DNA from: Acinetobacter phage Acba_11
Reading direction: 5' to 3' (one strand)
Length of the DNA: 64,000 nt
Sequence record: OQ101254.1
In this document: positions 10,283 through 30,994 of the stretch, one piece after another
Position numbering within the stretch: the stretch's first letter is position 1
How the letters are laid out: every line of letters begins with the position of its first letter
Program-made: the position numbers and the translations under genes
Notes under the pieces: generated by a model
Database searches by the model: none
Seen by the model: only the letters and a program-made list of their open reading frames with translations
What the model was told of the DNA's origin: nothing

Positions 10283-10303
10283 GCCTTATGGCTCTTTTTT
10301 TTG
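10281..10303 (+). terminator. Hairpin plus T9 run between the HExxH gene and terS (module A)
   Basis: GAGCC-TTAT-GGCTC followed by TTTTTTTTT. Homologous element at 22700-22725. Confidence 0.5.
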
Positions 10304-10340
10304 TCCTGTTTGCTGTACGTAGCTGTACGAAGGGGAATTT

Positions 10341-10811
10341 ATGGCAGCACTAAAAGAGCCTGTGAAAATATTTATTGTTCAAGCTCTTGCATGCCGTGAT
10401 ACCCCTCAAGAAGTGGTTGAACAGGTCAAGCAAGAGTTTGGAGTTGATATTAGTCGTAGCCAATGCGAATGCTATGACCCAACAAAATATTCGGGCAGAA
10501 ACTTAAGCAAGAAGTTTGTTGAGCTTTTTGAATTAACCAGAGAGAAGTTTGATAAAGGCTTAATTGATATTCCTATTGCTAATAAGTACTACCGACTGAA
10601 GCAATACCAAAGACAGCTTGAGAAGACTAGAAACGTCAAAACAGCCTTAAAAATTCTTGAGCAAGCCGCTAAAGACATTGGTGGTCAATTTACTAATCGT
10701 CAAGAAATTACAGGCAAAGACGGCGGACCAGTTCAAACAGTTAATTCTGAAATTCCAGTTCCAATGGAAGATTACTTAAAAGCGCGGAGGGAAGTCTTAG
10801 ATGAGTACTGA
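10341..10811 (+). CDS. terS: Putative terminase small subunit (DUF2280-like), module A
   Basis: 156 aa, directly upstream of and overlapping terL. The C-terminal 90 aa are identical to copy B; the N-terminal part has diverged. Confidence 0.5.
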   Translation: MAALKEPVKIFIVQALACRDTPQEVVEQVKQEFGVDISRSQCECYDPTKYSGRNLSKKFVELFELTREKFDKGLIDIPIANKYYRLKQYQRQLEKTRNVKTALKILEQAAKDIGGQFTNRQEITGKDGGPVQTVNSEIPVPMEDYLKARREVLDEY

Positions 10812-12228
10812 TGCGGCTCGGGATAAAGCCATCCAGATCGAGGCGCAAGAAGATTTATATTTCTTTACAAGGTACATGTTTAAGGAGCGCCGAGGCTACA
10901 AATGGATGCAAAATTGGCACCACTTAGAAATCTGCGAAGCATTAATGAAAGTTTATCGCGGTGAGACTAAGCGGTTAATTATTAACGTACCACCTCGATA
11001 TTCAAAAACTGAAATTGCTGTAATTAATTTTATGGCTTGGTGTTTTGGAAAGAAACCTGACTGTGAGTTTATTCATATCAGTTACTCGGCAATGCTTGCC
11101 GCAAATAATGCATTTCAGACTCGTAATATGGTTCAAGAAAAGGCTTATAAAAAGGTCTTTCCTGATCTTAAATTACGTGAGGATAGTAAAGCTAAGGATT
11201 TCTGGCGCACAGATGCAGGCGGAGTCTGCTATGCGACTGGTACTGGCGGTACCATTACAGGTTTTGGTGCAGGCAAAATGCGTGAAGGCTTTGGTGGTTG
11301 CATCATCATTGATGACCCGCATAAGGCCGATGAAGCCAAATCAAAAACTATCCGTGAAGGTGTAATTGACTGGTTCCAAAATACTCTCGAGTCTCGTACT
11401 AACTCACCAGAAACGCCAATTATTGTCATTATGCAGCGTCTTCATGAAGATGATTTGGCTGGATGGCTGCTAGGTGATAGAAAAGACGGCGTTCCTGTAG
11501 CTGGTGGTAACGGTGAAGTGTGGGAGCATCTATGTCTTTCGGCTATTCAAGAAGACGGATCTGCATTGTGGCCAGCAAAACACAATATTCAAAAGTTGAA
11601 GCAAATGGAGCAAGCTGCGCCGTATGTTTTTGCCGGGCAATATCGTCAAATGCCATCACCGCCAGCAGGTGGTTTTTTTAAGCCTGACAATATTGAAATT
11701 GTGGATGCTTTACCTGCTGATGTAGTGAAGCAAGTAAGGGCTTGGGACTTTGGTGCTACTGAGAATGAAGGCGACTTTACAGCAGGTGTTAGAGAAGCTC
11801 TTGGCGCAGATGGTTTTACTTACATTGTCGATGTTACAAGAGGACAGCTTGGTCCAGACAATGTTAATAAGCGCTTAAAACAAGTCACAGAGTTAGATGG
11901 GATGGGCGTAACGGTAAGGATTCCTCAAGATCCTGGTCAAGCTGGTAAATCACAAGCTAGTGCATTCGTAAAACTTCTTGCAGGATATGACGTCAAAGCC
12001 AAACCAGTTTCGGGAGACAAACTCACACGTGCACAACCTTTTGCGGCGCAAGTTAACGTGGGTAACGTGAGAATGCTTAGAGGTGATTGGAATAAAGACT
12101 TTATTGAAGAGCTTCGCAATTTTCCAAATGGAACGCATGACGACCAAGTTGATGCTGGTTCAGATGCATTTAATGAATTGAATGGAGGTTTTGAGGCCTT
12201 CTTTGCTGATATGGGATTTGCTCGATGA
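10801..12228 (+). CDS. terL: Terminase large subunit, module A
   Basis: 475 aa. ATPase-like PPRYSKTE and IIIDDPH motifs. C-terminal nuclease-domain HDDQVDA. Followed by a portal gene with ATGA overlap. Confidence 0.85.
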   Translation: MSTDAARDKAIQIEAQEDLYFFTRYMFKERRGYKWMQNWHHLEICEALMKVYRGETKRLIINVPPRYSKTEIAVINFMAWCFGKKPDCEFIHISYSAMLAANNAFQTRNMVQEKAYKKVFPDLKLREDSKAKDFWRTDAGGVCYATGTGGTITGFGAGKMREGFGGCIIIDDPHKADEAKSKTIREGVIDWFQNTLESRTNSPETPIIVIMQRLHEDDLAGWLLGDRKDGVPVAGGNGEVWEHLCLSAIQEDGSALWPAKHNIQKLKQMEQAAPYVFAGQYRQMPSPPAGGFFKPDNIEIVDALPADVVKQVRAWDFGATENEGDFTAGVREALGADGFTYIVDVTRGQLGPDNVNKRLKQVTELDGMGVTVRIPQDPGQAGKSQASAFVKLLAGYDVKAKPVSGDKLTRAQPFAAQVNVGNVRMLRGDWNKDFIEELRNFPNGTHDDQVDAGSDAFNELNGGFEAFFADMGFAR

Positions 12229-13676
12229 GTGACGTAACTTTTAAACATCCTGAATATGTTAAAAACTTGCCATATTGGCAGAAGCTAGATGATGTGTGTG
12301 AAGGCGAGGATGCTGTAAAGGCTAAAGGAGAAAAGTATCTTCCGAAACCCAATGCTCATGATCAATCACCTGCAAATAAAAGTGCTTATGAGGCTTATCG
12401 TACTCGGGCAGTCTTTTATGAAGTAACGGGGACTACATCTAATAGTTTAGTTGGTGCAGCTTTTGCAACCGATCCAAGTTTTAAATTTCCTCCAGAACTA
12501 GCTCACTTAGAACGCAATGCTAACGGCGCGGGATTAAGTGCTTATCAATTGGCACAGAACGGGATCCGACATTTATTAAAGCATTATCGTTGTGCTTTAT
12601 ATGTTGACTATCCTGCAGTTACACCGGCTCGAAATCTTGCGGAGTTTAAACAGCAAAAAGCCTACCCGATGATTCACTTATTGAATGCCATTGATGTGAT
12701 CAATTGGGATTCAATGATGATTGATAACCAGAAAAAGCTTTGCTTGGTGGTCATCCGTGAATTTACTTCAGAACGAGGCGCTGATGGCTTTAGCAAATCT
12801 GAGGTAGAGCAATACAGAGTACTTCGTTTAGAGCCTGATAATGAAGGAAACTTCATCTATACAGTTCAAGTTTACACAAAAGGCGACAAGGGTACATGGA
12901 AGGGCGAAGATAAGAAGTATCCCACTGATAATAACGGGGATTTCTGGTCTTATATTCCATTCACTTTTGTGGGGGCTATTGATAACTCTGAAGAGATTAA
13001 AAAGCCTCCATTGCTCCCATTGGCTAATCTTAATTTAGCTCATTATAGAGATAGTGCGGACTTTCAAGAGTCCGTTTTTTATATGGGCCAACCACAGTTT
13101 TATGCTAAGGGAGTTAATTGGGCTTGGTATGACGAGGCTAAAAAGCGTGGCATTTATATCGGTGCGAAAGTTCTATTACCTTTACCTGAAAACGGTGATT
13201 TGGGGATTGTACAAGCAGATCCAAACACATTAGCACGGGAAGCTATGAAGGATAAGTGGGAGCAAATGAAGGAGCTTGGTGCTCGACTTATTGAAAAAGG
13301 TTCCGCAGCTAAAAAGACTGCTACTGAATCTAACAGTGATGATGCCGTGCAGCATTCCGTTCTTTCACTTTGTGTTGTGAATATGAATGAAGCTTTGTCT
13401 ATGGCTTTACGTTGGGCTGCTAAATTTGTAGTACCTAATGTTGATGTTCTGACTAAAGATGAACTGATGTTCGAAATTAGTCAGGAATTTAACAAGCAAG
13501 GTTATTTAGCTGAGTTGGCTCGTCAATTGTTTGAAGCAGCTTTACAAGGTAGATCTTCATTCAAATCTTGGTGGGAATACAACCAAACAGGAATGTTTCC
13601 TAAACAAAAATATGAAGAAGAAATCCTAAATGTTGAAGCTGAACAGGATGGGACTTTGAATCAAGGAGTGAATTGA
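12225..13676 (+). CDS. Portal protein, module A
   Basis: 483 aa, between terL and the head-morphogenesis gene. Start overlaps the terL stop. Confidence 0.75.
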   Translation: MSDVTFKHPEYVKNLPYWQKLDDVCEGEDAVKAKGEKYLPKPNAHDQSPANKSAYEAYRTRAVFYEVTGTTSNSLVGAAFATDPSFKFPPELAHLERNANGAGLSAYQLAQNGIRHLLKHYRCALYVDYPAVTPARNLAEFKQQKAYPMIHLLNAIDVINWDSMMIDNQKKLCLVVIREFTSERGADGFSKSEVEQYRVLRLEPDNEGNFIYTVQVYTKGDKGTWKGEDKKYPTDNNGDFWSYIPFTFVGAIDNSEEIKKPPLLPLANLNLAHYRDSADFQESVFYMGQPQFYAKGVNWAWYDEAKKRGIYIGAKVLLPLPENGDLGIVQADPNTLAREAMKDKWEQMKELGARLIEKGSAAKKTATESNSDDAVQHSVLSLCVVNMNEALSMALRWAAKFVVPNVDVLTKDELMFEISQEFNKQGYLAELARQLFEAALQGRSSFKSWWEYNQTGMFPKQKYEEEILNVEAEQDGTLNQGVN

Positions 13677-13677
13677 T

Positions 13678-14781
13678 ATGGCGGCAACTATCAAAGAACT
13701 CTTAGAGGCACTAACTCAACACCAAGCATATCTTTTTCGCGCTTCATCAAAAACAGTTAATGAATTATTAGGTTTATTTAATGATGATACAAAAGCAATG
13801 CTTTCAAAGCTGCGTGATCTATTAGAGGAACTTAATGATTCAGAGAAAATTGCTTTAGCTGGTGGGAAGTATACAACGTCAAACCTCAGAGAGATTAAAG
13901 ATTTGATTGACCAATGGTTTGCTAGTGTAAATACAAGCTTACCTGAAGCTTTCACCGTCTCTGCTACCGCTTTAGCGGTTTATGAAGCTAATTACATAGC
14001 CAAGCTATACGGAGCGAAAAATAAAACTCTTAGCGGTGACAAGTTCTATTCTGCTGCTAAAAAGGTACCATTGGCTGGTGGTGCCCTAGTTGATGATCTT
14101 TTATCAAGAATTACTGAAGCTGCCCGTCAAAAAGTTGAATATGCAATCAGAGATGGTATTAACACTGGCAAAACTAATAGTGAGATTATTCAGCGTATCC
14201 GTGGTACCAAGAAGCTAAATTATGAAGACGGATTACTCAACAGCACAAAATCAGACATTGAGCGCACTGTAAGAACGGTTCGGAGCCATGTAGCTAACCA
14301 GGCATATTTAAAAAGTTTTGATCAAATTGGCTTCAAATATGTGCGATTTGTGAGTGTTCTTGATGGAAGAACTTCAAAACTTTGTGCATCCCTTGATGGA
14401 AGCTTTTGGGAAATAAATGACCCAGCAAAGCGCGTTCCTCCATTACATCCAAATTGTCGAAGCATTCTGGTACCAGTTGAGAAAGACGGTTCTTTAGCTG
14501 GTCAGCGTCCTTTTGTGATGGATGAGAGAAGAGTGAAAGACATCCCCAAAGAAGAGCGTGATCAGTTGATTGGGCAAATGGATGCAAACATAACATTTAA
14601 AGAGTTCTTCAAAAAGACAGATGACTTCTTTCAAAAAGAATGGTTGGGACCAAAGCGTTACAAACTCTTCAAAGAGGGAAAATTTGATTTTGAAAAGTTC
14701 TTCGATCCGGATGGACGTCTTTATACACTCGACCAACTTCGCATGTTGGACGAACAATTGTTCAAGAGGTTGGGAATATGA
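13678..14781 (+). CDS. Head morphogenesis protein (Mu gpF / SPP1 gp7 family), module A
   Basis: 367 aa with the HPNCRS motif typical of Mu F-like proteins. Confidence 0.75.
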   Translation: MAATIKELLEALTQHQAYLFRASSKTVNELLGLFNDDTKAMLSKLRDLLEELNDSEKIALAGGKYTTSNLREIKDLIDQWFASVNTSLPEAFTVSATALAVYEANYIAKLYGAKNKTLSGDKFYSAAKKVPLAGGALVDDLLSRITEAARQKVEYAIRDGINTGKTNSEIIQRIRGTKKLNYEDGLLNSTKSDIERTVRTVRSHVANQAYLKSFDQIGFKYVRFVSVLDGRTSKLCASLDGSFWEINDPAKRVPPLHPNCRSILVPVEKDGSLAGQRPFVMDERRVKDIPKEERDQLIGQMDANITFKEFFKKTDDFFQKEWLGPKRYKLFKEGKFDFEKFFDPDGRLYTLDQLRMLDEQLFKRLGI

Positions 14782-15039
14782 ATTTTACTTTAAGTGGTGA
14801 GGGGAAAATTCAACTATCTACTCGAGCAAAATACAGATTGCGTAGATGGCTTAGAAAACTTGAAAAGAGGTCGAAGTTATGAAGCAAATAACTATGACTC
14901 AAGCACAATACATCCTAAGTACAAATCTTATTGTTGTGCCTTTTGTAAGGAAGTTGATTCCAAGATATATGGCTATTTTAGGATACAACTTCAAACAGCC
15001 CACAGCACAGATTCCGCATTAAACCTAATTCAAACCATA

Positions 15040-15061
15040 GCACCTTCGGGTGCTTTTTTTA
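15040..15061 (+). terminator. Intrinsic terminator (GCACC-TTCG-GGTGC plus T7), conserved in both modules
   Basis: Same hairpin at about 28172-28192 in module B. Confidence 0.6.
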
Positions 15062-15073
15062 TATGAGGTCATC

Positions 15074-15586
15074 ATGACAAAGCAACCGCAAACACTTCAA
15101 GAGCTAGTTCAAAATGTTGAATATTTCAATGTGGACCAAGCATCACCAGATGCACTACCTAAACGCATTATATGCATCCTAAAACTTCACTCTGGAGTGC
15201 AAGTAAACGGCGAGTATTTGATTCCTGAAGGTTCACCTGTTGGTGATTACAATCCGTTTGCACTTACATCTGCCATTGAAAATTTAAAAAAGCTCGGATT
15301 TGAAATTATTGAACCACCTTCTGAACCACAAGTAATCGAAGGTGAGGCAGTTGAGGTTGGCCAGAATTTAGATGACCCATCACTTAAAGCGGTTGAAGCA
15401 CCAAAAATTAAAAGTCTGGAATCCCATGTAACTGTTACGGGCGCAGGGGTTAATACTTATGATGTTCGTCATGCAAATCTGCATTCAATTGAAGCATTGA
15501 CCTCACTTTTGAAGGTTACGAAGTTAAATACTGATGTGTCGAATGCTGCAAACTCTAAGCTTGTTGAACTTATTAATGGACTCTAA
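15074..15586 (+). CDS. Hypothetical protein (moron slot, module A only)
   Basis: ATG 15074 with GAGG RBS. No counterpart in module B. Confidence 0.45.
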   Translation: MTKQPQTLQELVQNVEYFNVDQASPDALPKRIICILKLHSGVQVNGEYLIPEGSPVGDYNPFALTSAIENLKKLGFEIIEPPSEPQVIEGEAVEVGQNLDDPSLKAVEAPKIKSLESHVTVTGAGVNTYDVRHANLHSIEALTSLLKVTKLNTDVSNAANSKLVELINGL

Positions 15587-15654
15587 GTTTCAGGCGTCTT
15601 GAGCATATTTTAATTTTAACCAGCACACTAAGGTGCTTTTTTTGTGAGAAAGAA

Positions 15655-15969
15655 ATGACCAAAGAAGTAACAGAGCAAGAGTTAGCGGAAAAGTCTGTGG
15701 CACCCCGAGTAACTAAAGCGCAAATTGATGCGATGATGGACCGCGTTACATATACAGTGGAGCAGCGCCCTGGAGGTACAACATCTACTTTTGTACATGC
15801 ATTTTTAGATGGAAAATTTTTTCTAGCAACGGGTTTTAGCGCATGTGTGAATGCAGAAAACTTTGATGCTGAAATGGGTGAGCGTATAGCTCGAAGCAAC
15901 GCAGAAAAGTCAGCCGAAAATAAACTTTGGGAACTCGAAGGCTATCGTTTATTTGCCACAAACTTCTAA
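15655..15969 (+). CDS. Gp49-like phage protein (N4 gp49 / Sf6 gp66 family), module A only
   Basis: ATGFSACVNAENFDAEMGERIARSNAEKSAENKLWELEGY matches the CV.P.NFD..G...A...A..K.WELEGY signature. Confidence 0.6.
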   Translation: MTKEVTEQELAEKSVAPRVTKAQIDAMMDRVTYTVEQRPGGTTSTFVHAFLDGKFFLATGFSACVNAENFDAEMGERIARSNAEKSAENKLWELEGYRLFATNF

Positions 15970-16010
15970 GTTTTTAATCGAAATAAAGCGTCCTTAGGGG
16001 CGCTTTTTTA

Positions 16011-16082
16011 ATGTCTGCCGGAAGCGGATGCGGACGGTGAATCCGGGCGGATGCCCACTTGTGTATATAGGTTGGATGACCA
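16011..16082 (+). promoter_or_regulatory. Conserved GC-rich element upstream of the scaffold gene (module A copy)
   Basis: TGCCGGAAGCGGATGCGGACGGTGAATCCGGGCGGATGCCCA, then TGTATATAGG, then ATG. Direct repeat GCGGATGC x2, 5-bp inverted repeat CGGAT/ATCCG. Conserved at about 28440-28508 despite diverged flanks. Confidence 0.4.
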
Positions 16083-16850
16083 ATGAAACTTAAAACAGTA
16101 ACGATCGACGGTAAAGTTTATGCGGAAGTAGACGGCGATAAGCCGATCTATATTCATGATGACGGCAAAGAAATGCCACATGATGCACCTCATTCGGTAG
16201 CAACAATTGCACGCTTAAACAATGAAGTTAAAACACATCGTGAAGCCAAAGAAGCAGCTGAAAAAGCATTAAAAGCTTTTGAAGGAATCGAAGACCCTGC
16301 GGCAGCTAAAAAGGCCTTACAAACAATCCAAAATCTCGATGATAAAAAGCTGGTGGATGCCGGTGAAGTTGAGAAAGTTAAAGCTGAAGCTATCAAAGCA
16401 GTTGAAGAAAAATATGCCCCGATTGTTGAGCAACGTGATGCTCTTGAGGCCTCATTGCATAAAGAGCTAATCGGCGGTGGTTTTGCTCGTTCTAAGTACA
16501 TTCAAGACAACATTGCAGTACCTGTGGATATGGTGCAAGCGACCTTTGGTCATCACTTCAAAATCGAAGAGGGCAAGGTGGTTGCATATGACCAGAACGG
16601 CGAAAAGATTTATTCACGTGTACGCCCAGGTGAACTTGCAAATGTTGATGAAGCTTTAGAGTCATTGGTTGGTGGATACCAGCATAAAGACTTAATTCTT
16701 AAAGGTGGTAAAGGGACTGGTGGAGGTTTCCAAAGCGGGGGCAAAGGTGGAGCACCTACTGGAATGAAACGCAGTGAAATGTCTGTTTCTCAGAAAGCAG
16801 ATTACATCAAAGAACATGGCAATGATGCCTTCCTAAAACTACCGAACTAA
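16083..16850 (+). CDS. Capsid scaffolding protein, module A
   Basis: 255 aa, helix-rich, Gly-rich C-terminal tail, immediately upstream of the major capsid gene. Confidence 0.6.
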   Translation: MKLKTVTIDGKVYAEVDGDKPIYIHDDGKEMPHDAPHSVATIARLNNEVKTHREAKEAAEKALKAFEGIEDPAAAKKALQTIQNLDDKKLVDAGEVEKVKAEAIKAVEEKYAPIVEQRDALEASLHKELIGGGFARSKYIQDNIAVPVDMVQATFGHHFKIEEGKVVAYDQNGEKIYSRVRPGELANVDEALESLVGGYQHKDLILKGGKGTGGGFQSGGKGGAPTGMKRSEMSVSQKADYIKEHGNDAFLKLPN

Positions 16851-16877
16851 TCATTAAATATTTGGAGATAAGTAGTT

Positions 16878-17834
16878 ATGACTACGACAGTTAATTCAGA
16901 CATGATCATCTATAATCAATTTGCTCAAACTGCTTATTTAGAGCGTTTGCAAGATAATTTGAATGTATTTAACCAAGCCTCTAATGGTGCAATTGTTTAT
17001 CGCAATGAGATCATTGAAGGTGATTTCAATAAAGAAGCATTCTACAAAGTGGGCGGTAGCATCAAACATCGTGATGTGAATTCAACCGCCAAAGTAGTTC
17101 CAGAGAAAATTGGTTCTGGTGAGTCTGTAGGCGTAAAAGTCCCATATAAATATGGTCCTTATGCATCAACTGAAGAGGCATTTAAGCGCCGTGCTCGTAC
17201 ACCAGAAGAATTTGCTATGGTTGTTGGTTACGATCTTGCAGATGCATTGGTTGCAGGCCGATTAGAGTACAGTTTAGCTTCTTTAAAAGCTGCTATTTCT
17301 AGCAATCCAGACATGGTTGCAAAAGGTAGTATCGTTGTTGATGGCCGCAAAGCATTGACTCGTGGTATGCGAAAGTTTGGTGATAAGTTTGGCCGCATTG
17401 GCTTATGGGTGATGAACTCAGATACATATTTCGATATTGTCGATGATGCAATCACTAAGCAAATTTATGGTGAATCTGAAATCGTTATCTACGGTGGTTT
17501 ACCGGGAACCTTAGGAAAGCCGGTCTTGGTGACGGACGCTGTAGGTGATAACGATGCTTTTGGTTTGCAGTATGGCGCTGTCACTGTAACTGAATCACAA
17601 GTACCGGGCTTCCGAGCTTATGACATGAATGATGAAGAAAACTTAGCAATCGGTATGCGTGCTGAAGGTGCATTTAACTTAGATATTCTTGGTTATAGTT
17701 GGGATACATCGAAAGGTGAAAATCCTGACCTTACATTACTTGGTTCAAGCGCTAACTGGATCAAATATGCAACCAGCAACAAAATGACAGCAGGTACCTT
17801 ACTTGATTTATCGGGTACAGCGACAACTGGTTAA
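16878..17834 (+). CDS. Major capsid protein, module A
   Basis: 318 aa, follows the scaffold gene, strong RBS GGAGATAAG. Paralog at 29304. Confidence 0.75.
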   Translation: MTTTVNSDMIIYNQFAQTAYLERLQDNLNVFNQASNGAIVYRNEIIEGDFNKEAFYKVGGSIKHRDVNSTAKVVPEKIGSGESVGVKVPYKYGPYASTEEAFKRRARTPEEFAMVVGYDLADALVAGRLEYSLASLKAAISSNPDMVAKGSIVVDGRKALTRGMRKFGDKFGRIGLWVMNSDTYFDIVDDAITKQIYGESEIVIYGGLPGTLGKPVLVTDAVGDNDAFGLQYGAVTVTESQVPGFRAYDMNDEENLAIGMRAEGAFNLDILGYSWDTSKGENPDLTLLGSSANWIKYATSNKMTAGTLLDLSGTATTG

Positions 17835-17854
17835 AACCTAAAAATTAAAACCTA

Positions 17855-17879
17855 AGGGGGCTAATAAGCCCTCTTTTTT
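17855..17879 (+). terminator. Intrinsic terminator after the major capsid gene
   Basis: AGGGGGC-TAATAA-GCCCTCT followed by TTTTTT. Confidence 0.6.
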
Positions 17880-17899
17880 ATTATTAAGAGAAAAGCGCC

Positions 17900-18565
17900 A
17901 TGAAGATTATCTATACACGCATTGCAGCAGCGGCTGCATTAGAGACAGGCATTATTGCTAACCCTGACTATTATGAAAACCCAAATTTGAAAGCAAAAGA
18001 GGTAATTATTTACGGTAATTATCCAAAGATTCAAAAGGATTATGAATCTTTGGAAGTTCCAGTTGAAGTTCGTAAGTTGGAAGTGCCACAAAAAACGACT
18101 TTGGCCACAGTAAATGTCGCAGTGGGAATTACCCCTGAACTTCAAGCTGTGATGGATGATGCAAAAGCTGAATGTGAAAAGGTAGTTGAAGAAAACACTC
18201 AGCTTAAGCAGAAAATTGCCATCTTAGAGCAGGCCGGTGGTAACCAGTCAGAGTTGTTATCTGAAAATTCACGATTAAAAGATGCAGCAGTTTTAGCAGA
18301 TAAAGCTCTCAAAGATGCTGAAGCTCAAGTGGTCGGTATAAAAACTGAATTTGAAGCTTTTAAAAATGATATTCCTGCAATGCAGGCACGTATTGCTGAA
18401 TTGGAAGCTGGAAAAGCGGCAGAAAACCCAGCTACAGAAACGGCAGCTAATGATTTTGAAAACTGGTCAAATGATCAATTAAAAGAGTATTTGGCTAGTA
18501 AAAACATTGGTTACAAGCCGTCTGCAACAAAAGCAGAACTTCTTAAATTAATCCCGAAGGAATAA
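17900..18565 (+). CDS. Head-associated coiled-coil protein with C-terminal HeH (Rho-N/SAP-like) motif, module A
   Basis: Central coiled coil. C-terminal LKEYLASKNIGYKPSATKAELLKLI. Confidence 0.4.
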   Translation: MKIIYTRIAAAAALETGIIANPDYYENPNLKAKEVIIYGNYPKIQKDYESLEVPVEVRKLEVPQKTTLATVNVAVGITPELQAVMDDAKAECEKVVEENTQLKQKIAILEQAGGNQSELLSENSRLKDAAVLADKALKDAEAQVVGIKTEFEAFKNDIPAMQARIAELEAGKAAENPATETAANDFENWSNDQLKEYLASKNIGYKPSATKAELLKLIPKE

Positions 18566-18569
18566 TGCA

Positions 18570-18959
18570 ATGAGCTTTATTACTGTAGATGACGCAAATT
18601 CAATTTTGGGCAGCGATTTTGCACCAGACAGTGATAAGGCTCGTCTGGTGAAGCTGGCAAATGTGTGGATGAAAAACAGAATTGGTTTTGTACCAGATCC
18701 AATTGATCCACTTCTTAAGGACGCGGCTTGTGAAATTATCAAAGGAATTCTGGCCAAAGTAATTTATAACGGCAAAGAGCAGCAGTTGAAGCGTAAGAAA
18801 GTTAAGGCTGATTCTGTTGAGTCAGAAAAAGAATTTCAAGACGGATCTGAAGCAATCTCTAGCTTTGAACAGATAGCAATTGATTTTATTGATTCACTTG
18901 ATTTGAAAGATCCAAATGCAAGTTTTAATGGCTTTGGCATACCACTTTACAGGGCATGA
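18570..18959 (+). CDS. Head-tail connector/adaptor protein candidate, module A
   Basis: Position after the capsid genes. Conserved in module B. Confidence 0.45.
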   Translation: MSFITVDDANSILGSDFAPDSDKARLVKLANVWMKNRIGFVPDPIDPLLKDAACEIIKGILAKVIYNGKEQQLKRKKVKADSVESEKEFQDGSEAISSFEQIAIDFIDSLDLKDPNASFNGFGIPLYRA

Positions 18960-19329
18960 TATGGGCTTACGTGACGAAATTCAGGCAGACATTGCTGAAG
19001 CATTTAATGATGATTTAGCAGATGCCATTCATACCTTTACATGTGAGCGGATCTCTAAAACGAATTGGGATCCTAAAACTGAAACTTATGTTGAAGTTAA
19101 AGAAAACTATTCTGGCCGTGGCGTTCTGTTTGGCTCATACAGTCAATATGAGATCCAAACACTTGGAGTACTGGCCACGGATAAAAAGGCAACCGTGCTT
19201 CAAAATGAAGTAACTATGACTCCAAAAATTGAAGATGAATGGTTAACTGCCTTAGGCTCATTCCGGGTAATTAATATTCAACAGGATCCAGCTAATACTA
19301 TTTGGAAATGTCAGCTTCGAAAAGTGTAG
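18916..19329 (+). CDS. Head completion protein candidate, module A
   Basis: Position. Paralog at 31341. Confidence 0.4.
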   Translation: MQVLMALAYHFTGHDMGLRDEIQADIAEAFNDDLADAIHTFTCERISKTNWDPKTETYVEVKENYSGRGVLFGSYSQYEIQTLGVLATDKKATVLQNEVTMTPKIEDEWLTALGSFRVINIQQDPANTIWKCQLRKV

Positions 19330-19337
19330 GGGCTAAA

Positions 19338-19742
19338 ATGGTTAATCCTGATTATGTTCCTGAATGGTATATCTCGCCTTTTCAACATGTGCAGTACACG
19401 CTTGCTCGAAATCAACTACACATGGATTTGTTATTTGAAGATATGGATAAGGCCGATCAATTTTTGGATATGGGAGCGGATGCGCAAGTTAGTACTTTTT
19501 CTGATGGTGCATATGCAATCGTCCAAATTGGTGATACGGCGGATAAAGACCGAATTCAAGTTTATGGATTGCTTTTACATGAAGCTGTTCATGTCTGGCA
19601 AAAGATTAAAAAGCTCATGGGTGAACGAGAACCGAGCTCTGAGTTTGAAGCTTATTCAATTCAGGCGATCGCTCAAGACCTTTTTAAAATGTATGAAGAA
19701 AGCGAGGTGAATGATGGGATGGAAGGGGAAAAAGCCAACTGA
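19338..19742 (+). CDS. Head-tail joining protein candidate, module A (ATG 19338)
   Basis: RBS AGGGGC. Paralog at 31763. Confidence 0.4.
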   Translation: MVNPDYVPEWYISPFQHVQYTLARNQLHMDLLFEDMDKADQFLDMGADAQVSTFSDGAYAIVQIGDTADKDRIQVYGLLLHEAVHVWQKIKKLMGEREPSSEFEAYSIQAIAQDLFKMYEESEVNDGMEGEKAN

Positions 19743-20082
19743 ATTTAGTTTTGATGTGTCTAAAGCAGCAGAAGACCAGGTGAAGCATATTGTTATGGAT
19801 ACTGTGCAATCCTTAGTTAATTTAAGTCCTGTTGATACTGGAGCATACCGTGCTTCACATATTGTTTCGGTTGGATCTGCTGATTTCGGCGTGCGTGAAC
19901 CTGAAACAAACCCTATTAACGACGCAGCGATTCAGGCAATGAAGATTAAGTTAGGTAATTTGGTTTATATCCAGAACAATAAAGCTTATGGACCGCGCTT
20001 AGAAAACGGCTGGTCTGATCAAGCACCACAAGGTATTTATGGCCTCACGTTTAACTTTATTTCTCAAAAGTACGGTGGCTAA
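19711..20082 (+). CDS. Head-tail joining/tail completion protein candidate, module A
   Basis: RBS GAGGTG. Paralog at 32139. Confidence 0.4.
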   Translation: MMGWKGKKPTEFSFDVSKAAEDQVKHIVMDTVQSLVNLSPVDTGAYRASHIVSVGSADFGVREPETNPINDAAIQAMKIKLGNLVYIQNNKAYGPRLENGWSDQAPQGIYGLTFNFISQKYGG

Positions 20083-20083
20083 A

Positions 20084-20482
20084 ATGGCAATGACTTTAGA
20101 GCAGACAAGGCAAGCTATTATTGATCGCATGCAAAGCTTTACGGGTATTGCTCAAGAACGGATTCAGTATCCAAATGCACCTGACTTTACTGTTCCAACA
20201 AAAGGTGTATGGTGCCGTTTAACGATTGCAGGTGGCCCGAGTTTTACCTCAGGCATTGCAGATAAGCCATGTACACGCCGTACCGGTAATATCATGATCC
20301 AATGCTTTGACCGATTACATACTGGAGAGAAGGCCGTAACGGTTCTAAGCGATGCATTGCTGGCTCATTTTGAATATTTCACAATCGAACACTTAGAATG
20401 TTTGAATGGCCAATCTATTTATGCGGGTAAAGATGCTGATTTCATTCAGTATAATGTGAGCATTGGGTACAAGGTGAATTGA
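20084..20482 (+). CDS. Tail completion protein candidate, module A (ATG 20084)
   Basis: RBS GGTGG. Paralog at 32509. Confidence 0.4.
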   Translation: MAMTLEQTRQAIIDRMQSFTGIAQERIQYPNAPDFTVPTKGVWCRLTIAGGPSFTSGIADKPCTRRTGNIMIQCFDRLHTGEKAVTVLSDALLAHFEYFTIEHLECLNGQSIYAGKDADFIQYNVSIGYKVN

Positions 20483-20483
20483 T

Positions 20484-20702
20484 ATGTCATGTATGCTGAC
20501 TTTAGAAGAAATCGAAATTAAACGGCAAGAACTGGAACGGCATCTTGAAGATGTTATGTCTGTTGAGTTGAGCAAATGGCAATCTGAAAACAAGCTATGT
20601 GTTTCTGATGTGAATATACGCTTGGCTAATGTTGTTAGTCTCGGAGGGCCTAAACATAACGTTGTTACTGGAGTAAGTGTCGATTTAGATAATGAGCTTT
20701 GA
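20484..20702 (+). CDS. Hypothetical 72-aa protein ending module A
   Basis: ATGA coupling to the upstream gene. Paralog at 32909. Confidence 0.4.
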   Translation: MSCMLTLEEIEIKRQELERHLEDVMSVELSKWQSENKLCVSDVNIRLANVVSLGGPKHNVVTGVSVDLDNEL

Positions 20703-20846
20703 GTTCAAGAAAAAGCTACTGCAAGGCGATTATTTTTAATGACCTCAGCATATTATCATTTGTGATTACATTCTGTTACAGATAATCTTTCATTTAATGA
20801 GTTAGATGAATTGAAAAGACAGTTCTTTGATGAAAAATAGAATAAA

Positions 20847-20868
20847 GCCACCCTCGGGTGGTTTTTTA
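20847..20868 (+). terminator. Terminator-like hairpin (CCACC-CTCG-GGTGG plus T6) followed by ATTGCG
   Basis: Homologous to the 33180-33203 hairpin that ends module B. Confidence 0.55.
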
Positions 20869-20881
20869 TTGCGAGGTCAAA

Positions 20882-21373
20882 ATGGAATTCAGACAAGTTG
20901 TTAAGAACCATTGCGACATTGCGCCAGTCACTAACTTTCTTAATGTGAATCATGGTAAGGCAGCGAGTGAAGGGAAGCCGTTAGTTGTATTGATTGCACC
21001 TCAAGAGAAAGACCGGACGAAAGCTCAAAACCGTTTGTACTGGATGTGGCTAAATCAGTGGGCTAAGAAGCAGGGAACGGATAAAGACTATGAACATCTG
21101 TTCTTTAAGAAGAACTTCTTATCCAAAATCTATGATCGTGATGACGTTGGCCAATACAAGAAAACATTCAAGGCTGTTAGAGAGTTGAAGGATTCTAAGC
21201 ATCCTCTTTATCAAGATGTAGCAAACGGCCTATGCGAGCTAATGAGCACTACAGACGCAAGTACAGCTCAATTCACAGAATACCTAAACGACATTCACGC
21301 ATTCTGCAATAAAAACGGGTGTTATTTGGAAACGCCTGATGATTTAAAATGGTGTTATAGTGATCCTTTATAA
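20882..21373 (+). CDS. ninB: NinB-like recombination protein (lambda NinB/Orf family)
   Basis: VVLIAPQEKDRTKAQNRLYWMWL vs lambda IVVTIQERNRSLDQNRKLWACL; C-terminal AQFTEYLNDIHAF vs EFAELLELIQAF. Confidence 0.55.
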   Translation: MEFRQVVKNHCDIAPVTNFLNVNHGKAASEGKPLVVLIAPQEKDRTKAQNRLYWMWLNQWAKKQGTDKDYEHLFFKKNFLSKIYDRDDVGQYKKTFKAVRELKDSKHPLYQDVANGLCELMSTTDASTAQFTEYLNDIHAFCNKNGCYLETPDDLKWCYSDPL

Positions 21374-21390
21374 TAAATAAGGGTCTATAA

Positions 21391-21624
21391 ATGTCAGAAA
21401 AGCGTGAATTTTCGGTAAAAGCTAAAGCAGAAGATGGCACTACAAACGGTTATGTAGTTGAGTTTGATATTTTTGATACACTAAACTTGGATGATGGGGA
21501 ATTTAAAAGCAAATCCTTCATTCCAAATGTAGTCATAATTGATCAAAATCGGATCCCAGTTTATTCAAAGAAATTTAGAGATCCGAGAGACGATAAAGAA
21601 TATACGATTCAAGGTAATTTTTAG
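21391..21624 (+). CDS. Hypothetical protein
   Basis: ORF with terminator at 21630-21650. Confidence 0.35.
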   Translation: MSEKREFSVKAKAEDGTTNGYVVEFDIFDTLNLDDGEFKSKSFIPNVVIIDQNRIPVYSKKFRDPRDDKEYTIQGNF

Positions 21625-21664
21625 TAGAACCGCCCAAGTGGCGGTTTTTTAATGGGCGAGAATA

Positions 21665-22099
21665 ATGGATTCTACAGAATACTTTTGGCTTACTCGGAAA
21701 AAAGAACCTAAAACTAAACCTAAAAGCCGGCCACTGCCAAAGCCTACACAAAAATATCTCGAGGCTGAGGCAACACTTAAGGAAGAGCTTGAGGATTTGT
21801 CGATTGGATTTGAACAGAAGTTTCAGCCGATCCATACCAAACACTGGCGCTTTGATTTTCATATTGTGAAATTGCGTTTGCTCATTGAAATTGAGGGTGG
21901 GCCCTGGTCTGGTGGACGTGGTGGAAAGCTGGCAAATAAAGCATGGAGTCTTGATCAATATGATCAAGCTGAAGAGATGGGTTATAAAATAGAGCGCTTT
22001 CATCCAGATTCTATTTTGTCGGGATATGTCATCAACTGGATAAAAAGTGAATTAGCGAGAATTGAAGATGGAGCAGATCAGACCATTTCCACCGACTGA
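21665..22099 (+). CDS. Endonuclease-fold protein (Vsr/DUF559-like), module B
   Basis: HWRFDFHIVKLRLLIEIEGGPWSGG. About 60 percent identical to the 9205 product. Confidence 0.45.
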   Translation: MDSTEYFWLTRKKEPKTKPKSRPLPKPTQKYLEAEATLKEELEDLSIGFEQKFQPIHTKHWRFDFHIVKLRLLIEIEGGPWSGGRGGKLANKAWSLDQYDQAEEMGYKIERFHPDSILSGYVINWIKSELARIEDGADQTISTD

Positions 22100-22709
22100 T
22101 TTTATTGATCAAGCTGAAGAAGAGGAAGCAATTAGACTAACACCAGCACCGGACTTAAAAAAATGGGTTGTGGCTAATTACTTAACTATTGGGGGTCCTA
22201 TTTATAATCCAGATCATGATCATATTGCTGAGCTGCTTCATGATAATGACGAGTTTTTAGCATTCGCGTGGGCCTCTTCTGCATATAAAAGCAAGCAAGC
22301 TATGGTGTTAGGCCAGTGCGAAAAAGTCATGTTCAATGTTGGTGGCTGGCGTAAAGCTCGACAAGAGCAACAGATGCGTGATTGGTTTGGTTTTGTACCT
22401 ACTTATTTAATAACTGTCGACGCTTCTTTCTGTGAGCGTGCAAACGATACAGAGTTCTGTTACTTACTTGAACATGAGCTTTACCACATTGGAGTGATGA
22501 GAGACGAGGACGGAGAAATTGTTTATAGCGATAGTTCTGGTCTTCCTAAGCACTATCTTGCTGGTCATGACGTTGAAGAGTTTATTGGCGTAGTTAAACG
22601 TTATGGACCAAGCAAAAATGTTAAGCGACTTATTGAAGTCGCAAAAAATCCGCCGTTTGTTTCGAATCTTGATATTTCAAAATGCTGCGGCAACTGTGTA
22701 ATCAATTGA
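22062..22709 (+). CDS. HExxH metallopeptidase-like protein, module B
   Basis: LLEHELYHIGVM. Over 95 percent identical to the 9641 product. Confidence 0.45.
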   Translation: MKMEQIRPFPPTDFIDQAEEEEAIRLTPAPDLKKWVVANYLTIGGPIYNPDHDHIAELLHDNDEFLAFAWASSAYKSKQAMVLGQCEKVMFNVGGWRKARQEQQMRDWFGFVPTYLITVDASFCERANDTEFCYLLEHELYHIGVMRDEDGEIVYSDSSGLPKHYLAGHDVEEFIGVVKRYGPSKNVKRLIEVAKNPPFVSNLDISKCCGNCVIN

Positions 22710-22767
22710 GCCTAATGGCTCTTTTTTTTGCCCATTTTGTTATACGTAGTTATACGATGAGGAAGTT

Positions 22768-23238
22768 ATGGCGACACTAAAAGAGCCTGTGAAAATCTTT
22801 ATAGTTCAGTCTCTTGCTTGTCGTGATACACCTCAAGAAGTGGCTGAACTCGTAAAACAAGAGTTTGGCGTTGATATAGATCGTGTTCAAGTTGCAACTT
22901 ATGACCCTACAAAGGTTGCTGGTAAGAACTTAAGCAAAAAGTATGTCGAACTATTTGAAAAAACCAGAGATGAGTTTGATAAAGGCTTAATTGATATTCC
23001 AATTGCTAATAAGTACTACCGATTGAAGCAATACCAAAGACAACTTGAGAAGACTAGAAACGTCAAAACAGCCTTAAAAATTCTTGAGCAAGCCGCTAAA
23101 GACATTGGTGGTCAATTTACTAATCGCCAAGAAATTACAGGCAAAGACGGCGGACCAGTCCAAACAGTTAATTCAGAAATTCCAGTTCCAATGGAAGATT
23201 ACTTAAAAGCGCGGAGGGAAGTCTTAGATGAGTACTGA
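22768..23238 (+). CDS. terS: Putative terminase small subunit, module B
   Basis: Paralog of 10341..10811. N-terminal third diverged, C-terminal two thirds near-identical. Confidence 0.5.
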   Translation: MATLKEPVKIFIVQSLACRDTPQEVAELVKQEFGVDIDRVQVATYDPTKVAGKNLSKKYVELFEKTRDEFDKGLIDIPIANKYYRLKQYQRQLEKTRNVKTALKILEQAAKDIGGQFTNRQEITGKDGGPVQTVNSEIPVPMEDYLKARREVLDEY

Positions 23239-24655
23239 TGCGGCTCGGGATAAAGCCATCCGGATCGAGGCGCAAGAAGATTTATATTTCTTCACAAGGT
23301 ACATGTTTAAGGAGCGCCGTGGTTATAAATGGATGCAAAATTGGCACCACTTAGAAATCTGCGAAGCTTTAATGAAAGTTTATCGCGGAGAGATAAAGCG
23401 GTTAATTATTAACGTTCCACCACGATATTCTAAAACTGAAATTGCTGTAATTAATTTCATGGCTTGGTGTTTTGGTAAGAATCCAGACTGTGAGTTTATT
23501 CATATCAGTTACTCGGCAATGCTTGCCGCAAATAATGCCTTCCAAATACGAACTCTTGTACAAGAAGAGGCGTATAGAAAAGTCTTTCCTGAGCTTACAT
23601 TGCGTGATGATAGTAAGGCTAAAGACTTCTGGAGAACTTCTCAAGGCGGTGTCTGCTATGCGACAGGTACAGGCGGTACGATTACTGGTTTTGGTGCAGG
23701 AAAACTTCGTAAAGGCTTTGGTGGCTGCATTATTATTGATGACCCACATAAAGCACATGAAGCTTCATCAAAAACTATTCGAGAAGGGGTAATTGATTGG
23801 TTTCAGAACACACTCGAATCGCGTACTAACTCGCCAGATACGCCGATCATTGTGATTATGCAGCGACTTCATGAAGATGATTTAGCTGGATGGTTGCTAG
23901 GTGATAGAAAAGACGGCGTTCCTGTAGCTGGTGGTAACGGTGAAGTGTGGGAGCATCTATGTCTTTCAGCTATTCAGGAAGACGGATCCGCACTGTGGCC
24001 AGCAAAACACAATATCCAAAAATTGAGGCTAATGGAGCAAGCAGCACCATATGTATTTGCCGGGCAGTACCGACAAATGCCATCACCGCCAGCAGGCGGT
24101 TTTTTTAAGCCCGACAATATTCAAATTGTTGATGCTTTGCCTGCGGATGTAGTGAAACAAGTTAGGGCTTGGGATTTTGGGGCTACCGAAAATGAGGGCG
24201 ACTTTACAGTAGGTGTGCGAGAAGCTCTAGGCGCAGATGGTTTTACTTACATTGTCGATGTAACTAGAGGACAGCTTGGACCTGACAATGTGAATAAGCG
24301 CTTAGAACAAACAGCAAAAATAGATGGGAAAAACGTTTCTGTGCGTCTACCACAAGATCCCGGTCAAGCTGGTAAATCACAAGCTAGTTCATTTGTGAAG
24401 CTTCTTGCGGGTTATAGCGTGATAGCTAAGCCAATTTCAGGTGACAAGCTTACACGTGCACAACCATTTGCGGCCCAAGTTAACGTAGGAAATGTACGAA
24501 TGCTCAAAGGTGAATGGAATAAGGATTTTATTGATGAGCTTCGTCATTTTCCTAATGGCACACATGACGACCAAGTGGATGCAGCTTCAGATGCGTTTAA
24601 TGAATTACATGAAGGTTTTGAAGCCTTCTTTGCTGATATGGGATTTGCTCGATGA
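23228..24655 (+). CDS. terL: Terminase large subunit, module B
   Basis: 475 aa, about 90 percent identical by eye to the 10801 product. All motifs intact. Confidence 0.85.
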   Translation: MSTDAARDKAIRIEAQEDLYFFTRYMFKERRGYKWMQNWHHLEICEALMKVYRGEIKRLIINVPPRYSKTEIAVINFMAWCFGKNPDCEFIHISYSAMLAANNAFQIRTLVQEEAYRKVFPELTLRDDSKAKDFWRTSQGGVCYATGTGGTITGFGAGKLRKGFGGCIIIDDPHKAHEASSKTIREGVIDWFQNTLESRTNSPDTPIIVIMQRLHEDDLAGWLLGDRKDGVPVAGGNGEVWEHLCLSAIQEDGSALWPAKHNIQKLRLMEQAAPYVFAGQYRQMPSPPAGGFFKPDNIQIVDALPADVVKQVRAWDFGATENEGDFTVGVREALGADGFTYIVDVTRGQLGPDNVNKRLEQTAKIDGKNVSVRLPQDPGQAGKSQASSFVKLLAGYSVIAKPISGDKLTRAQPFAAQVNVGNVRMLKGEWNKDFIDELRHFPNGTHDDQVDAASDAFNELHEGFEAFFADMGFAR

Positions 24656-26103: not shown

Positions 26104-26104
26104 G

Positions 26105-30990: not shown

Positions 30991-30994
30991 TGCA

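Follow-up and report, generated by a model that had tools for sequence, protein, structure and literature searches.

The window analyzed in this work is a 64,000-nt stretch of DNA from Acinetobacter phage Acba_11 (OQ101254.1), in which a head and packaging module is present twice, in tandem, and the two copies resemble each other very unevenly along their length. This raises the question of how the patchwork arose. The original prediction held that the copies have long resided together, that ongoing gene conversion homogenizes some blocks, and that the parts left to diverge are those recognizing DNA, such that the two modules may differ in packaging specificity.

Two head modules lie in tandem in the Acba_11 record

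The modules, and those of their genes that are compared below, are as follows.

9205..20702, + strand: head/packaging module A (Pfam and PHROG matches; colinear with Acba_3 and AM106)
21665..33121, + strand: head/packaging module B (gene order as in module A; colinear with Acba_15, Acba_4, and Acba_1)
9205..9672, + strand: nuclease-like gene A (phrog_503, 155 aa)
21665..22099, + strand: nuclease-like gene B (phrog_503, 144 aa; weak DUF559 match)
9641..10282, + strand: HExxH metallopeptidase gene A (PF18894)
22068..22709, + strand: HExxH metallopeptidase gene B
10341..10811, + strand: terS A (DUF2280; A-type N-terminal allele)
22768..23238, + strand: terS B (DUF2280; B-type N-terminal allele)
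10801..12228, + strand: terL A (Terminase_6C)
23228..24655, + strand: terL B
14790..15974, + strand: cargo stretch A, the MuF-to-scaffold interval (unrelated to its module B counterpart)
27216..28399, + strand: cargo stretch B (unrelated to its module A counterpart)

Module A starts with the nuclease-like gene, the HExxH metallopeptidase, TerS (DUF2280), TerL, portal (DUF4055), MuF, and cargo, followed by scaffold (DUF6651), major capsid (Gp13-like), HeH/Ish1 protein, adaptors, tail terminator, and a 72-aa gene. The tandem repeat was confirmed by blastn, with 9217-14790 matching 21677-27216 at 82.6% and 15974-20693 matching 28399-33118 at 84.8%. The A-to-B offset is 12425-12427 nt, and the modules, ~12.4 kb each, are 82-85% identical overall, with a cargo stretch of ~1.18 kb in the middle of each copy.

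Identity between the modules is patchy

As had been predicted, identity between the copies is not uniform: 100-nt windows span from ~64% to 99%, with a minimum of 1 and a maximum of 29-32 mismatches per 100 nt. The variance in mismatches is 4.3 times the binomial expectation in the left half and 7.5 times in the right half, a level that was reached by 0 of 2000 permutations. The individual blocks were recovered close to the values given for them. The 3′ part of terS, put at about 98%, is 97.6% identical (10560-10811; 246/252 nt); the first ~120 nt of terL, put at about 96%, are 95.8% identical, against 87.2% for the whole gene; and the HExxH protein, called near-identical, shows 96.2% identity in amino acids and 91.3% in nucleotides. 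The 5′ third of terS (10341-10559, 79.0% in nucleotides) and the upstream nuclease-like protein (59% in amino acids, with an 11-residue indel) are indeed diverged. Further high-identity blocks, absent from that account, are located at 9984-10230, 11434-11583, 16050-17170 (scaffold gene), 18375-19024, and 19425-19574. Along the modules, synonymous differences vary ~10-fold in proportion (pS), from 0.04-0.15 to 0.6-0.9; for this reason, the blocks reflect recombination and not constraint alone.

The claim that the diverged parts are DNA-recognition ends remains tenable for TerS only, whose substitutions fall in the N-terminal part, and not for the nuclease-like gene. Equally diverged blocks are found in genes for which no role in DNA recognition is expected, including the portal (12784-12933), MuF, HeH/Ish1 (17825-18374), and adaptor and tail-terminator genes (19025-19324 and 19725-20700), and this argues against a conversion model in which DNA-recognition parts are the ones that diverge.

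The patchwork already exists between single-module phages

When the sliding A-versus-B identity was set against that of the single-module phages Acba_3 and Acba_15, the former tracked the latter (r = 0.9987 for the left half and 0.9968 for the right half). Module A is ~100% identical to the single-module Acba_3/AM106 type up to 16859 and to the Acba_15 type from 16886, and module B is the reciprocal. In the left halves, module A scored 100% against AM106 (Moscow river) and module B 100% against B1251, R3177 (Korea), and LPAB85 (China). Counted as differing sites, the left part of A has 1 in 7.5 kb relative to Acba_3 and 5 relative to AM106, and its right part has 3 in 3.9 kb relative to Acba_15 and the independent IMG/VR prophages L045 and L049; the left part of B has 11 in 8.4 kb relative to Acba_15/Acba_4, and its right part has 1 in 3.8 kb relative to Acba_3 and AM106. 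With 1-11 differing sites per segment (99.87-99.99% identity), the copies lack the private changes that a long co-residence would have left. In the population, the left half is essentially bi-allelic, and B-type phages from Korea, China, and Poland all show the identity to A that copy B shows. LPAB85 is a natural single-module mosaic built of the same A-type and B-type blocks.

Patchy identity and blocks of low synonymous divergence are what a conversion model would predict, and one 10-nt cluster of 4 SNPs (26779-26788), at which B equals A and not Acba_15, would also fit; that cluster, however, is present in single-module Acba_1 as well. Against 1718 A/B differences, no more than 5 private changes bring a copy closer to its paralogue, and 4 of these 5 are also carried by Acba_1. 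No tract was found in which A is closer to B than the nearest single-copy relatives are to each other. Since the copies match single-copy relatives and only these 5 changes are conversion-like, there is no sign of conversion after joining; the copies have not detectably exchanged sequence. Long co-residence with ongoing conversion is contradicted by the identical patchwork between independent single-module phages and by the ~99.9-100% identity of each copy to single-copy relatives, and we consider it very improbable. Mosaic blocks from recombination thus stand in kind, as the swings in pS indicated, whereas their intragenomic and ongoing nature does not, as the patchwork already separates independent single-module phages. 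The A/B patchwork is very probably inherited allelic mosaicism rather than gene conversion inside the Acba_11 genome: two already mosaic, separate phage lineages were joined very recently, or were joined only in the assembly.

The extra block is bounded by a short crossover interval and contains a homology-free joint

The window is an excised (attP-intact) temperate siphovirus of Acinetobacter baumannii, of the AM106/Acba_3 type, plus a 12,426-bp block from a Vieuvirus-type relative. The block and its landmarks are listed below.

16886..29311, + strand: extra 12,426-bp Vieuvirus-type (Acba_15/R3177-like) block, defined by an informative-site map, segment identities, and panel scans
16860..16885, + strand: crossover interval in copy A, scaffold end/capsid start (AM106/Acba_3-type to the left, Acba_15-type to the right)
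29286..29311, + strand: reciprocal crossover interval in copy B (Vieuvirus-type to the left, AM106/Acba_3-type to the right)
29180..29285, + strand: eight-SNP patch in copy B (not in Acba_3, Acba_15, or copy A)
20781..20782, + strand: novel non-homologous joint, ...TTACAG/ATAATC... (0-4 nt of homology)
20782..20840, + strand: 59-nt 3′ remnant of a 64-aa gene (ACBA15_027 homologue), cut by the joint
20847..20867, + strand: terminator-like GC hairpin and T-run between the modules, which arrived with the Vieuvirus-type early region
20858..21373, + strand: NinB/Orf-like recombination mediator gene in the imported block (phrog_72, E = 1e-39)
21391..21624, + strand: 77-aa ORF in the imported upstream region

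Set in a backbone of the AM106/Acba_3 type, the block extends from the capsid gene of copy A (right part of A), across the new joint and the NinB region, to the scaffold gene end in copy B (left part of B). In copy A, left-type sites end at 16859, allowing for the patch in B, and right-type sites begin at 16886; in copy B, the parental type flips in the opposite sense at the equivalent 26-nt interval (29285/29312). The same position is therefore switched in both copies, as is characteristic of a single reciprocal (Campbell-type) crossover. The eight-SNP patch is common in natural single-module prophages, with 18-20 loci matching it at 149-150 of 150 nt.

The joint links the equivalents of ~26840 in the Acba_15 record, 84 nt past the 72-aa gene, and of 14415, inside the 64-aa gene, which is intact in 10 of 10 natural contexts. 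The joint sequence is absent from the phage records, the three contig collections, and 20 natural gene contexts. Direct repeats, a single joint without homology, and the absence of this joint from relatives are together the marks of an illegitimate tandem duplication. The NinB/Orf-like gene is 100% identical to those of Acba_15, Acba_4, and Acba_1 and has no counterpart upstream of module A; a RecA-like recombination protein is annotated in sibling records, and its homologue lies here at 61127-62008.

We propose that the joined genome would have required two steps. The reciprocal switch of parental type points to one reciprocal homologous crossover in 26 nt of identity at the scaffold/capsid gene boundary (16860-16885, equal to 29286-29311), and one non-homologous join, read from the sequence, would have been made between 20781 and 20782. 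Campbell-type insertion of a circularized fragment, or a large deletion in a heterodimer arising from mixed infection, would be equivalent. The order of events is what we infer, since the parental genomes are not exact database records (3-11 differences per segment). Each copy combines the two lineages, in opposite order, such that comparing A with B replays the comparison of one lineage with the other, whose uneven similarity probably dates from older recombination within the prophage population.

As the additional packaging and head genes form a complete set that lacks tail genes, the insertion of a cf-PICI-like element, a capsid-forming satellite, might also be considered. The gene content of 16886-29311 contradicts this, as no integrase, replication, or regulatory gene is found there except the NinB-like gene; both block ends lie inside phage late genes, and every segment is ~100% identical to head modules of complete phages. 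We regard the likelihood of a satellite as negligible.

The events might likewise be read in the reverse direction, with a two-module genome, or unseen A-only and B-only parents, being ancestral and the Acba_3- and Acba_15-type modules being A × B recombinants. Joining A up to 16859 to B from 29312 by deletion would leave exactly the Acba_3-type module, and the eight-SNP patch then needs no extra parent. However, the Acba_3-type arrangement occurs in AM106, an independent Russian isolate, and the Acba_15-type arrangement in independent IMG/VR prophages; moreover, an Acba_15-type genome is unreachable by simple deletion, for the excised circle would have to be opened precisely at the new joint. 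Neither a pure A nor a pure B module, from end to end, was found in any phage, and the scaffold-B protein in its exact form is known from no other record. This direction is improbable, and gain of a Vieuvirus-type block by an AM106/Acba_3-type backbone is the reading retained here.

Molecule or assembly product

The joined molecule is about equally likely to have been present in phage DNA and to exist only in the assembly. With a probability that we place just short of even, two related phages, one AM106-type and one Vieuvirus-type, were present in the lysate, and the pipeline or manual editing strung their head-module alleles in tandem, in which case there is no two-module molecule. The methods of the source publication report fragmented assemblies with "many repeating sequences" and the reuse of subsampled contigs as trusted contigs; one dominant scaffold was kept, and the records were called partial (PMC9866556). 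This short-read route is non-standard. No genome of the set exceeds that of Acba_11 (67,052 bp, 96 ORFs), whose ~67 kb lie 14 kb above the largest independently isolated relative listed (53.3 kb) and whose capsid in TEM is no larger than those of its siblings. Sibling records also carry curation artifacts or comparable peculiarities: a 127-bp k-mer overlap was left in that of Acba_3, and in that of Acba_15 a pair of alternative immunity blocks stands in tandem between 327-bp repeats of 97% identity. One laboratory sequenced both parental arrangements, on shared hosts. Furthermore, the duplication and the joint are unique to the Acba_11 window in the collections searched, which leaves the joined molecule without independent support; a second head-gene copy was found in none of 64 related phage records, 160 IMG/VR loci, 16 GTDB loci, and three contig collections.

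The switch points themselves argue in the other direction. A de Bruijn misjoin requires a shared k-mer, and k = 127 was taken as the largest k used, from the 127-nt overlap left in the Acba_3 record; yet the homology at the joint is 0-4 nt, the crossover interval spans only 26 nt, and A and B share no exact run longer than 96 nt, such that repeat collapse finds no exact shared stretch of k nt at any of them. A reciprocal switch within one interval is the expectation for a single real crossover, and copy B has SNPs absent from both sibling records. Trusted contigs or manual joining may still have produced a chimera by other routes. Acba_11 resembles the strain-mixture chimeras of short-read assembly in several respects (two close genotypes from the same lysate, a non-standard assembly route, excessive record size, and an arrangement without parallel elsewhere), but such chimeras typically switch at long shared repeats, without homology-free joints, whereas the joint in Acba_11 is homology-free.

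TerS alleles are exchanged as N-terminal cassettes

The terS gene is small and overlaps the start of terL (10801), and the same placement is found in copy B and in all relatives. Its family calls are DUF2280 (Pfam) and "unknown function" (PHROG), and its sequence has no match in the PDB. In the AlphaFold2 model, only residues 1-45 (three helices) reach a pLDDT of 68-86, the whole-protein mean being 55.5, and the best Foldseek matches, to G20c/P74-26 TerS, are not significant (E = 0.5). TerS A and B differ by 16 substitutions, all in residues 3-69, the predicted helix-turn-helix region, leaving 54 of residues 1-70 identical; five of these (38-44) fall, with moderate confidence, in the third helix of the predicted three-helix N-terminal domain. 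Residues 70-156 are identical, and mixed TerS rings would be expected since these C-terminal 87 residues are shared.

The upstream nuclease had been described as Vsr-like, a designation that we could not sustain: a single sub-threshold DUF559 match was obtained with copy B (13.5 bits versus a cutoff of 20.6; E = 0.065), the copy A protein did not match the DUF559 profile, and the gene belongs to PHROG 503, function unknown, with a weak homing-endonuclease match (E = 1.8e-4).

Among 176 related loci, the TerS N-terminal alleles form discrete classes. A-type TerS is partnered by an A-type nuclease at 15 loci and by a B-type nuclease at 14, and B-type TerS by A-type and B-type nucleases at 35 and 56 loci, respectively; at these 176 loci the alleles assort freely and are not inherited jointly as a packaging-recognition unit. 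Given this free assortment and the identical TerS C termini, separate packaging specificities of modules A and B are unproven. The population data also show cassette-like swapping of the N-terminal domain of TerS, with its C-terminal tail retained.

Discussion

Modular mosaicism is a familiar property of temperate tailed phages, from Botstein's modular theory and from the lambdoid phages studied by Hendrix and colleagues. Acba_11 conforms to it: near-identical blocks alternate abruptly with blocks of 65-80% identity, the synonymous divergence of neighbors is ~10-fold apart, and LPAB85 and other natural single-module phages mix the same two allele types. The conversion finding as first worded matters little, as the patchwork is mosaicism of the ordinary phage kind. 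Unlike the usual case, with alleles in separate genomes, the Acba_11 record holds both in tandem, and this is what misled the first reading of the locus.

Tandem duplications by illegitimate recombination were reportedly described in phage lambda by Bellett, Busse, and Baldwin in 1971 and by Emmons and colleagues in the 1970s. Acba_11 resembles them in the direct repeat, the single joint without homology, the expected instability through homologous recombination, and the head-capacity limit; the lambda copies, however, are identical and span a few kilobases, whereas those of Acba_11 derive from two lineages (82-85% identical), take in an entire 12.4-kb head module, and require an extra homologous crossover. 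Martinsohn et al. in 2008 and De Paepe et al. in 2014 are said to have described how phage recombinases mediate relaxed homologous recombination of phages with resident prophages. Here too, diverged relatives would have exchanged at very short identity (26 nt), Acba_11 encodes a NinB/Orf-like mediator, and related prophages co-reside in single A. baumannii genomes. In those exchanges, homology lies on both sides and sequence is replaced, whereas in Acba_11 one side is non-homologous and sequence is added.

If the structure is an artifact, the public record of Acba_11, and perhaps that of Acba_15, carries a chimeric duplication that misleads comparative and therapeutic-phage work. Somewhat less probable than such a chimera is the possibility that Acba_11 truly replicates with two modules and was caught midway through an exchange of modules by "add, then collapse." A phage would add the whole head module of a relative beside its own, by one short-homology crossover and one illegitimate join, and the heteroallelic tandem repeat would then resolve at any conserved block to yield new hybrid head modules. 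In such a molecule, the two gene sets would be expressed together and yield mixed products, because the TerS C termini are identical and the capsid proteins of modules A and B are 95.6% identical, and the repeat would quickly collapse by homologous recombination to one hybrid module. It would be a rare snapshot in which a whole structural module has been added from a relative before resolution into hybrids, as well as a natural setting in which to ask if a pair of TerS N-terminal alleles yields two packaging start sites. The swapping of TerS N-terminal cassettes provides a lead that work on pac specificity can use, and "add, then collapse," if true, would account for the mosaic breakpoints of this phage group lying in high-identity blocks.

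Genome layout and the two head modules

The window corresponds to the excised genome of a temperate Acinetobacter baumannii siphovirus, and all of the matching phage records (64/64) are Acinetobacter phages. Replication genes lie at the left, and the tail genes are located downstream of both head modules, followed by the lysis genes and the integrase:

33229-34158, tail tube
38182-42249, tape measure
45305-55774, 3489-aa tail protein
58490-59686, integrase, after the lysis genes and next to the leftward early genes

Two tandem copies of a module of packaging, head, and head-tail joining genes lie within 9205-33121 (copy A, 9205-20702; copy B, 21665-33121). Each starts with a nuclease-like gene, a HExxH metallopeptidase (PF18894), a DUF2280 protein, TerL, a DUF4055 portal, and MuF, continues with about 1.18 kb of cargo, a DUF6651 scaffold, a Gp13-like major capsid protein, and an HeH/Ish1 protein, and ends with adaptors, a tail terminator, and a 72-aa gene. 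The DUF2280 protein is TerS, assigned by position; terL spans 10801-12228 in A and 23228-24655 in B, and the capsid proteins of the two copies differ at 14 residues. The cargo between MuF and the scaffold gene is equal in length but unrelated in the two copies, comprising phrog_31105 and Phage_gp49_66 in A (14790-15974) and phrog_2564 and phrog_1046 in B (27216-28399); this interval seems to be a cargo-exchange hot spot. Each module also encodes a second HExxH protein, a 144-aa product of the head-tail region (19308-19742 in A, 31733-32167 in B) with its own HEAVH motif, which is annotated in relatives as "putative proteinase" and is identical at 130 of 145 aa between the copies. Strong terminator-like hairpins were found upstream of the late region (7472-7518 and 7772-7818), before each scaffold gene (15974-16060 and 28399-28485), and past module B (33143-33200). 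Promoter and terminator scans of the window stayed at background level, with the hairpin at 20847-20867 as the sole exception.

Alignment of copy A with copy B yielded 82.6% and 84.8% identity in the two halves, and identity in 100-nt windows ranged from about 64% to 99%. Mismatch counts were 4- to 7.5-fold over-dispersed, and the observed variance was reached in none of 2,000 permutations. The patchy, non-uniform identity put forward in the original prediction was thus borne out by alignment, sliding windows, and permutation test. The block figures given there were also accurate, both for DNA (97.6% for the 3' part of terS and 95.8% for the first 120 nt of terL) and for proteins (77% aa identity for TerS residues 1-70 with residues 70-156 identical, 59% for the nuclease-like protein, and 96% for the metallopeptidase), but the list of blocks was selective. 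Near-identical stretches also occur within the scaffold gene and adaptor 1 and at the termini of the metallopeptidase and HeH genes, and the high-identity blocks include 10560-11030, 16050-17170, and 18375-19024. The portal, MuF, HeH, adaptor 2, and tail terminator genes are at least as divergent as the terS 5' third.

Origin of the patchwork

Every related phage in the database carries a single module, and comparison with two single-module siblings, Acba_3 and Acba_15, is decisive for the origin of the patchwork. Copy A matches Acba_3 as far as 16736 and then, starting at 16886, Acba_15; copy B matches Acba_15 as far as 29162 and then, starting at 29312, Acba_3. Since the copies combine the two sibling types in opposite order, the A-versus-B identity profile is that of Acba_3 versus Acba_15 (r = 0.9987 and 0.9968). 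The conclusion is independent of the sibling records of one laboratory: the left part of A and the right part of B are 99.93-99.97% identical to phage AM106 (Moscow river), the head genes of B are 100% identical to those of phages B1251 and R3177, both from Korea, and of LPAB85 from China, and the right part of A is 99.9% identical to two IMG/VR prophages (L045 and L049). In the left half, each B-type phage showed the same window-by-window identity to A as copy B did, and the alleles in the population are essentially bi-allelic. Along the modules, the proportion of synonymous differences swings from 0.04-0.15 up to 0.6-0.9, indicating that constraint alone does not account for the blocks, which stem from old recombination among the prophages of this population. 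LPAB85 itself is a natural single-module mosaic of both allele types. Two A. baumannii genomes were found to carry pairs of co-resident related prophages, one at different loci of CP106988.1 (L030 and L031) and the other in GCA_958317425.1 (L013 and L021), a natural setting for inter-phage recombination.

Gene conversion between co-resident copies had been proposed as the source of the blocks. Depending on the segment, 1-11 sites separate it from the closest single-copy relative. Five of these private changes match the paralogue, one at 24334 and four clustered within 10 nt (26779-26788); any lone SNP has a one-in-three chance of such a match. The cluster is also found in the single-module phage Acba_1. 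Set against a total of 1718 A/B differences, these changes provide no evidence of conversion after joining, and the mechanism is not supported. The modules of two lineages came to lie side by side very recently, through either a rare recombination event or the assembly itself.

Anatomy of the duplication

Eight SNPs in copy B (29180-29285) are found in neither Acba_3 nor Acba_15, nor in copy A, but are common in natural single-module prophages. A Vieuvirus-type parent carrying this patch, together with one reciprocal crossover, would explain both copies. The crossover interval is a 26-nt identical stretch (16860-16885 = 29286-29311), and a joint between 20781 and 20782 (ACAG/ATAATC) closes the imported block of 12,426 bp (16886-29311). 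This joint, at which homology amounts to 0-4 nt, connects the equivalents of Acba_15 positions ~26840 and 14415 and truncates a 64-aa gene. In natural contexts, the 64-aa gene is intact upstream of a NinB-like gene (10/10), and an SH3-domain gene comes after the 72-aa gene in another 10/10. Exact-protein look-ups, which have limited power as they covered 23-24 contexts with the longest contigs, returned normal gene contexts only, with no match on record for the exact scaffold-B protein.

Given the reciprocal switch and the joint, two events are required, a crossover at short homology and an illegitimate join, the order of which we infer. A circularised fragment could have been inserted Campbell-style, or a heterodimer formed in a mixed infection could have undergone a deletion of ~48 kb. 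Derivation in the reverse direction, of the single-module types from a two-module genome, is unlikely, since both single-module arrangements are found independently elsewhere and Acba_15 is not obtainable from the window by simple deletion.

Outside the modules, 3415-5205 and 40246-41092 match neither Acba_3 nor Acba_15, the latter lying inside the tape-measure gene with SNP-dense edges; the backbone thus contains mosaic patches from third parties. Near the lysis genes, about 30 sites in 57166-57335 match Acba_15 and not Acba_3 within a backbone close to both, which is another small exchange. At the window end, a 15-nt tandem repeat array (63879-63998) has several sites that distinguish it from both Acba_3 and Acba_15; it lies inside a large leftward gene annotated in Acba_3 as a restriction-modification protein.

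TerS alleles and DNA recognition

The 16 substitutions between TerS A and TerS B all fall in residues 3-69, and five of them (38-44) map to the third helix of a three-helix N-terminal domain whose prediction is of moderate confidence. The structure model, built with close homologues only (>=91% identity), has a mean pLDDT of 55.5 and is poor outside this domain; a Foldseek search with this weak model gave no significant match, nor did a PDB sequence search with TerS give any. The N-terminal 70 residues sort 176 related loci into discrete classes: B-type (about 110), A-type (about 35), and a third class (about 22) with only 30/70 identity. The C-terminal tail is common even to this distant class. 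Judged from these classes and the shared tail, TerS resembles an exchangeable N-terminal cassette attached to a conserved tail that faces TerL, and different pac recognition by the A and B alleles is plausible.

The proposal of distinct DNA-recognition ends is plausible for TerS, where substitutions are confined to residues 3-69, but not for the nuclease-like gene, whose alleles assort freely with those of TerS across the same 176 loci, so that it is not part of the TerS recognition unit. Its description as Vsr-like rests on a single sub-threshold DUF559 match, the only one for the nuclease-like proteins in a relaxed Pfam search. Because the C-terminal 87 residues are identical, both TerS proteins, if made in one cell, would be expected to assemble into mixed rings rather than to act as separate packaging systems.

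Physical molecule or assembly artefact

Whether the joined two-module molecule is real or an assembly artefact stands at roughly even odds. The 45-nt joint sequence had no match in the genome_contigs, viral_contigs, and metagenome_contigs collections, and no phage record spanned it in the searched phage collection, whose entries do not include Acba_11 (OQ101254). Neither a second head-gene copy nor a capsid gene upstream of terL occurs in 185 related loci, and a search of the literature for other tandem duplications of a head module found nothing relevant. Acba_11 is reported at 67,052 bp with 96 ORFs (PMC9866556); the Acba_3 record is 55,181 bp, and independently isolated relatives among those listed are 45-53 kb. 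The same report describes assemblies in which subsampled contigs were re-entered as trusted contigs and a single dominant scaffold was retained, with the genomes deposited as partial; the capsid of Acba_11 did not exceed those of its siblings in size, and duplication in Acba phages is not mentioned (PMC9866556).

Sibling records have oddities that also favor an artefact. Acba_3 contains an exact 127-bp tandem repeat (22020-22273; single copy in the window at 34925-35051), which looks like an untrimmed k = 127 overlap of a circular SPAdes contig that survived rotation of the record. Acba_15 (OQ101257; loci L005 and L002) carries two alternative immunity/early blocks in tandem at 2364-5883, with the block at 2691-5556 (CI repressor, cro-like gene, ARC, and DnaD) between 327-bp copies identical at 318 of 327 positions, the same pattern of two alleles in tandem as in the head modules of the window. 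A simple graph artefact is, however, difficult to reconcile with a joint lacking any shared k-mer, a crossover interval of 26 nt, and a longest exact A/B run of 96 nt, and the reciprocal type switch is the pattern expected from one real crossover. Among related loci, L114 (NZ_JBFBOG010000005.1, "Leifsonia sp. NPDC077715") bears an actinobacterial label with a TerL 92% identical to that of the window phage, and this assembly is likely contaminated.

Taken together, the interest of the duplication is modest unless reads show the tandem molecule to be real, and the patchwork is ordinary inter-lineage mosaicism shown within one record.
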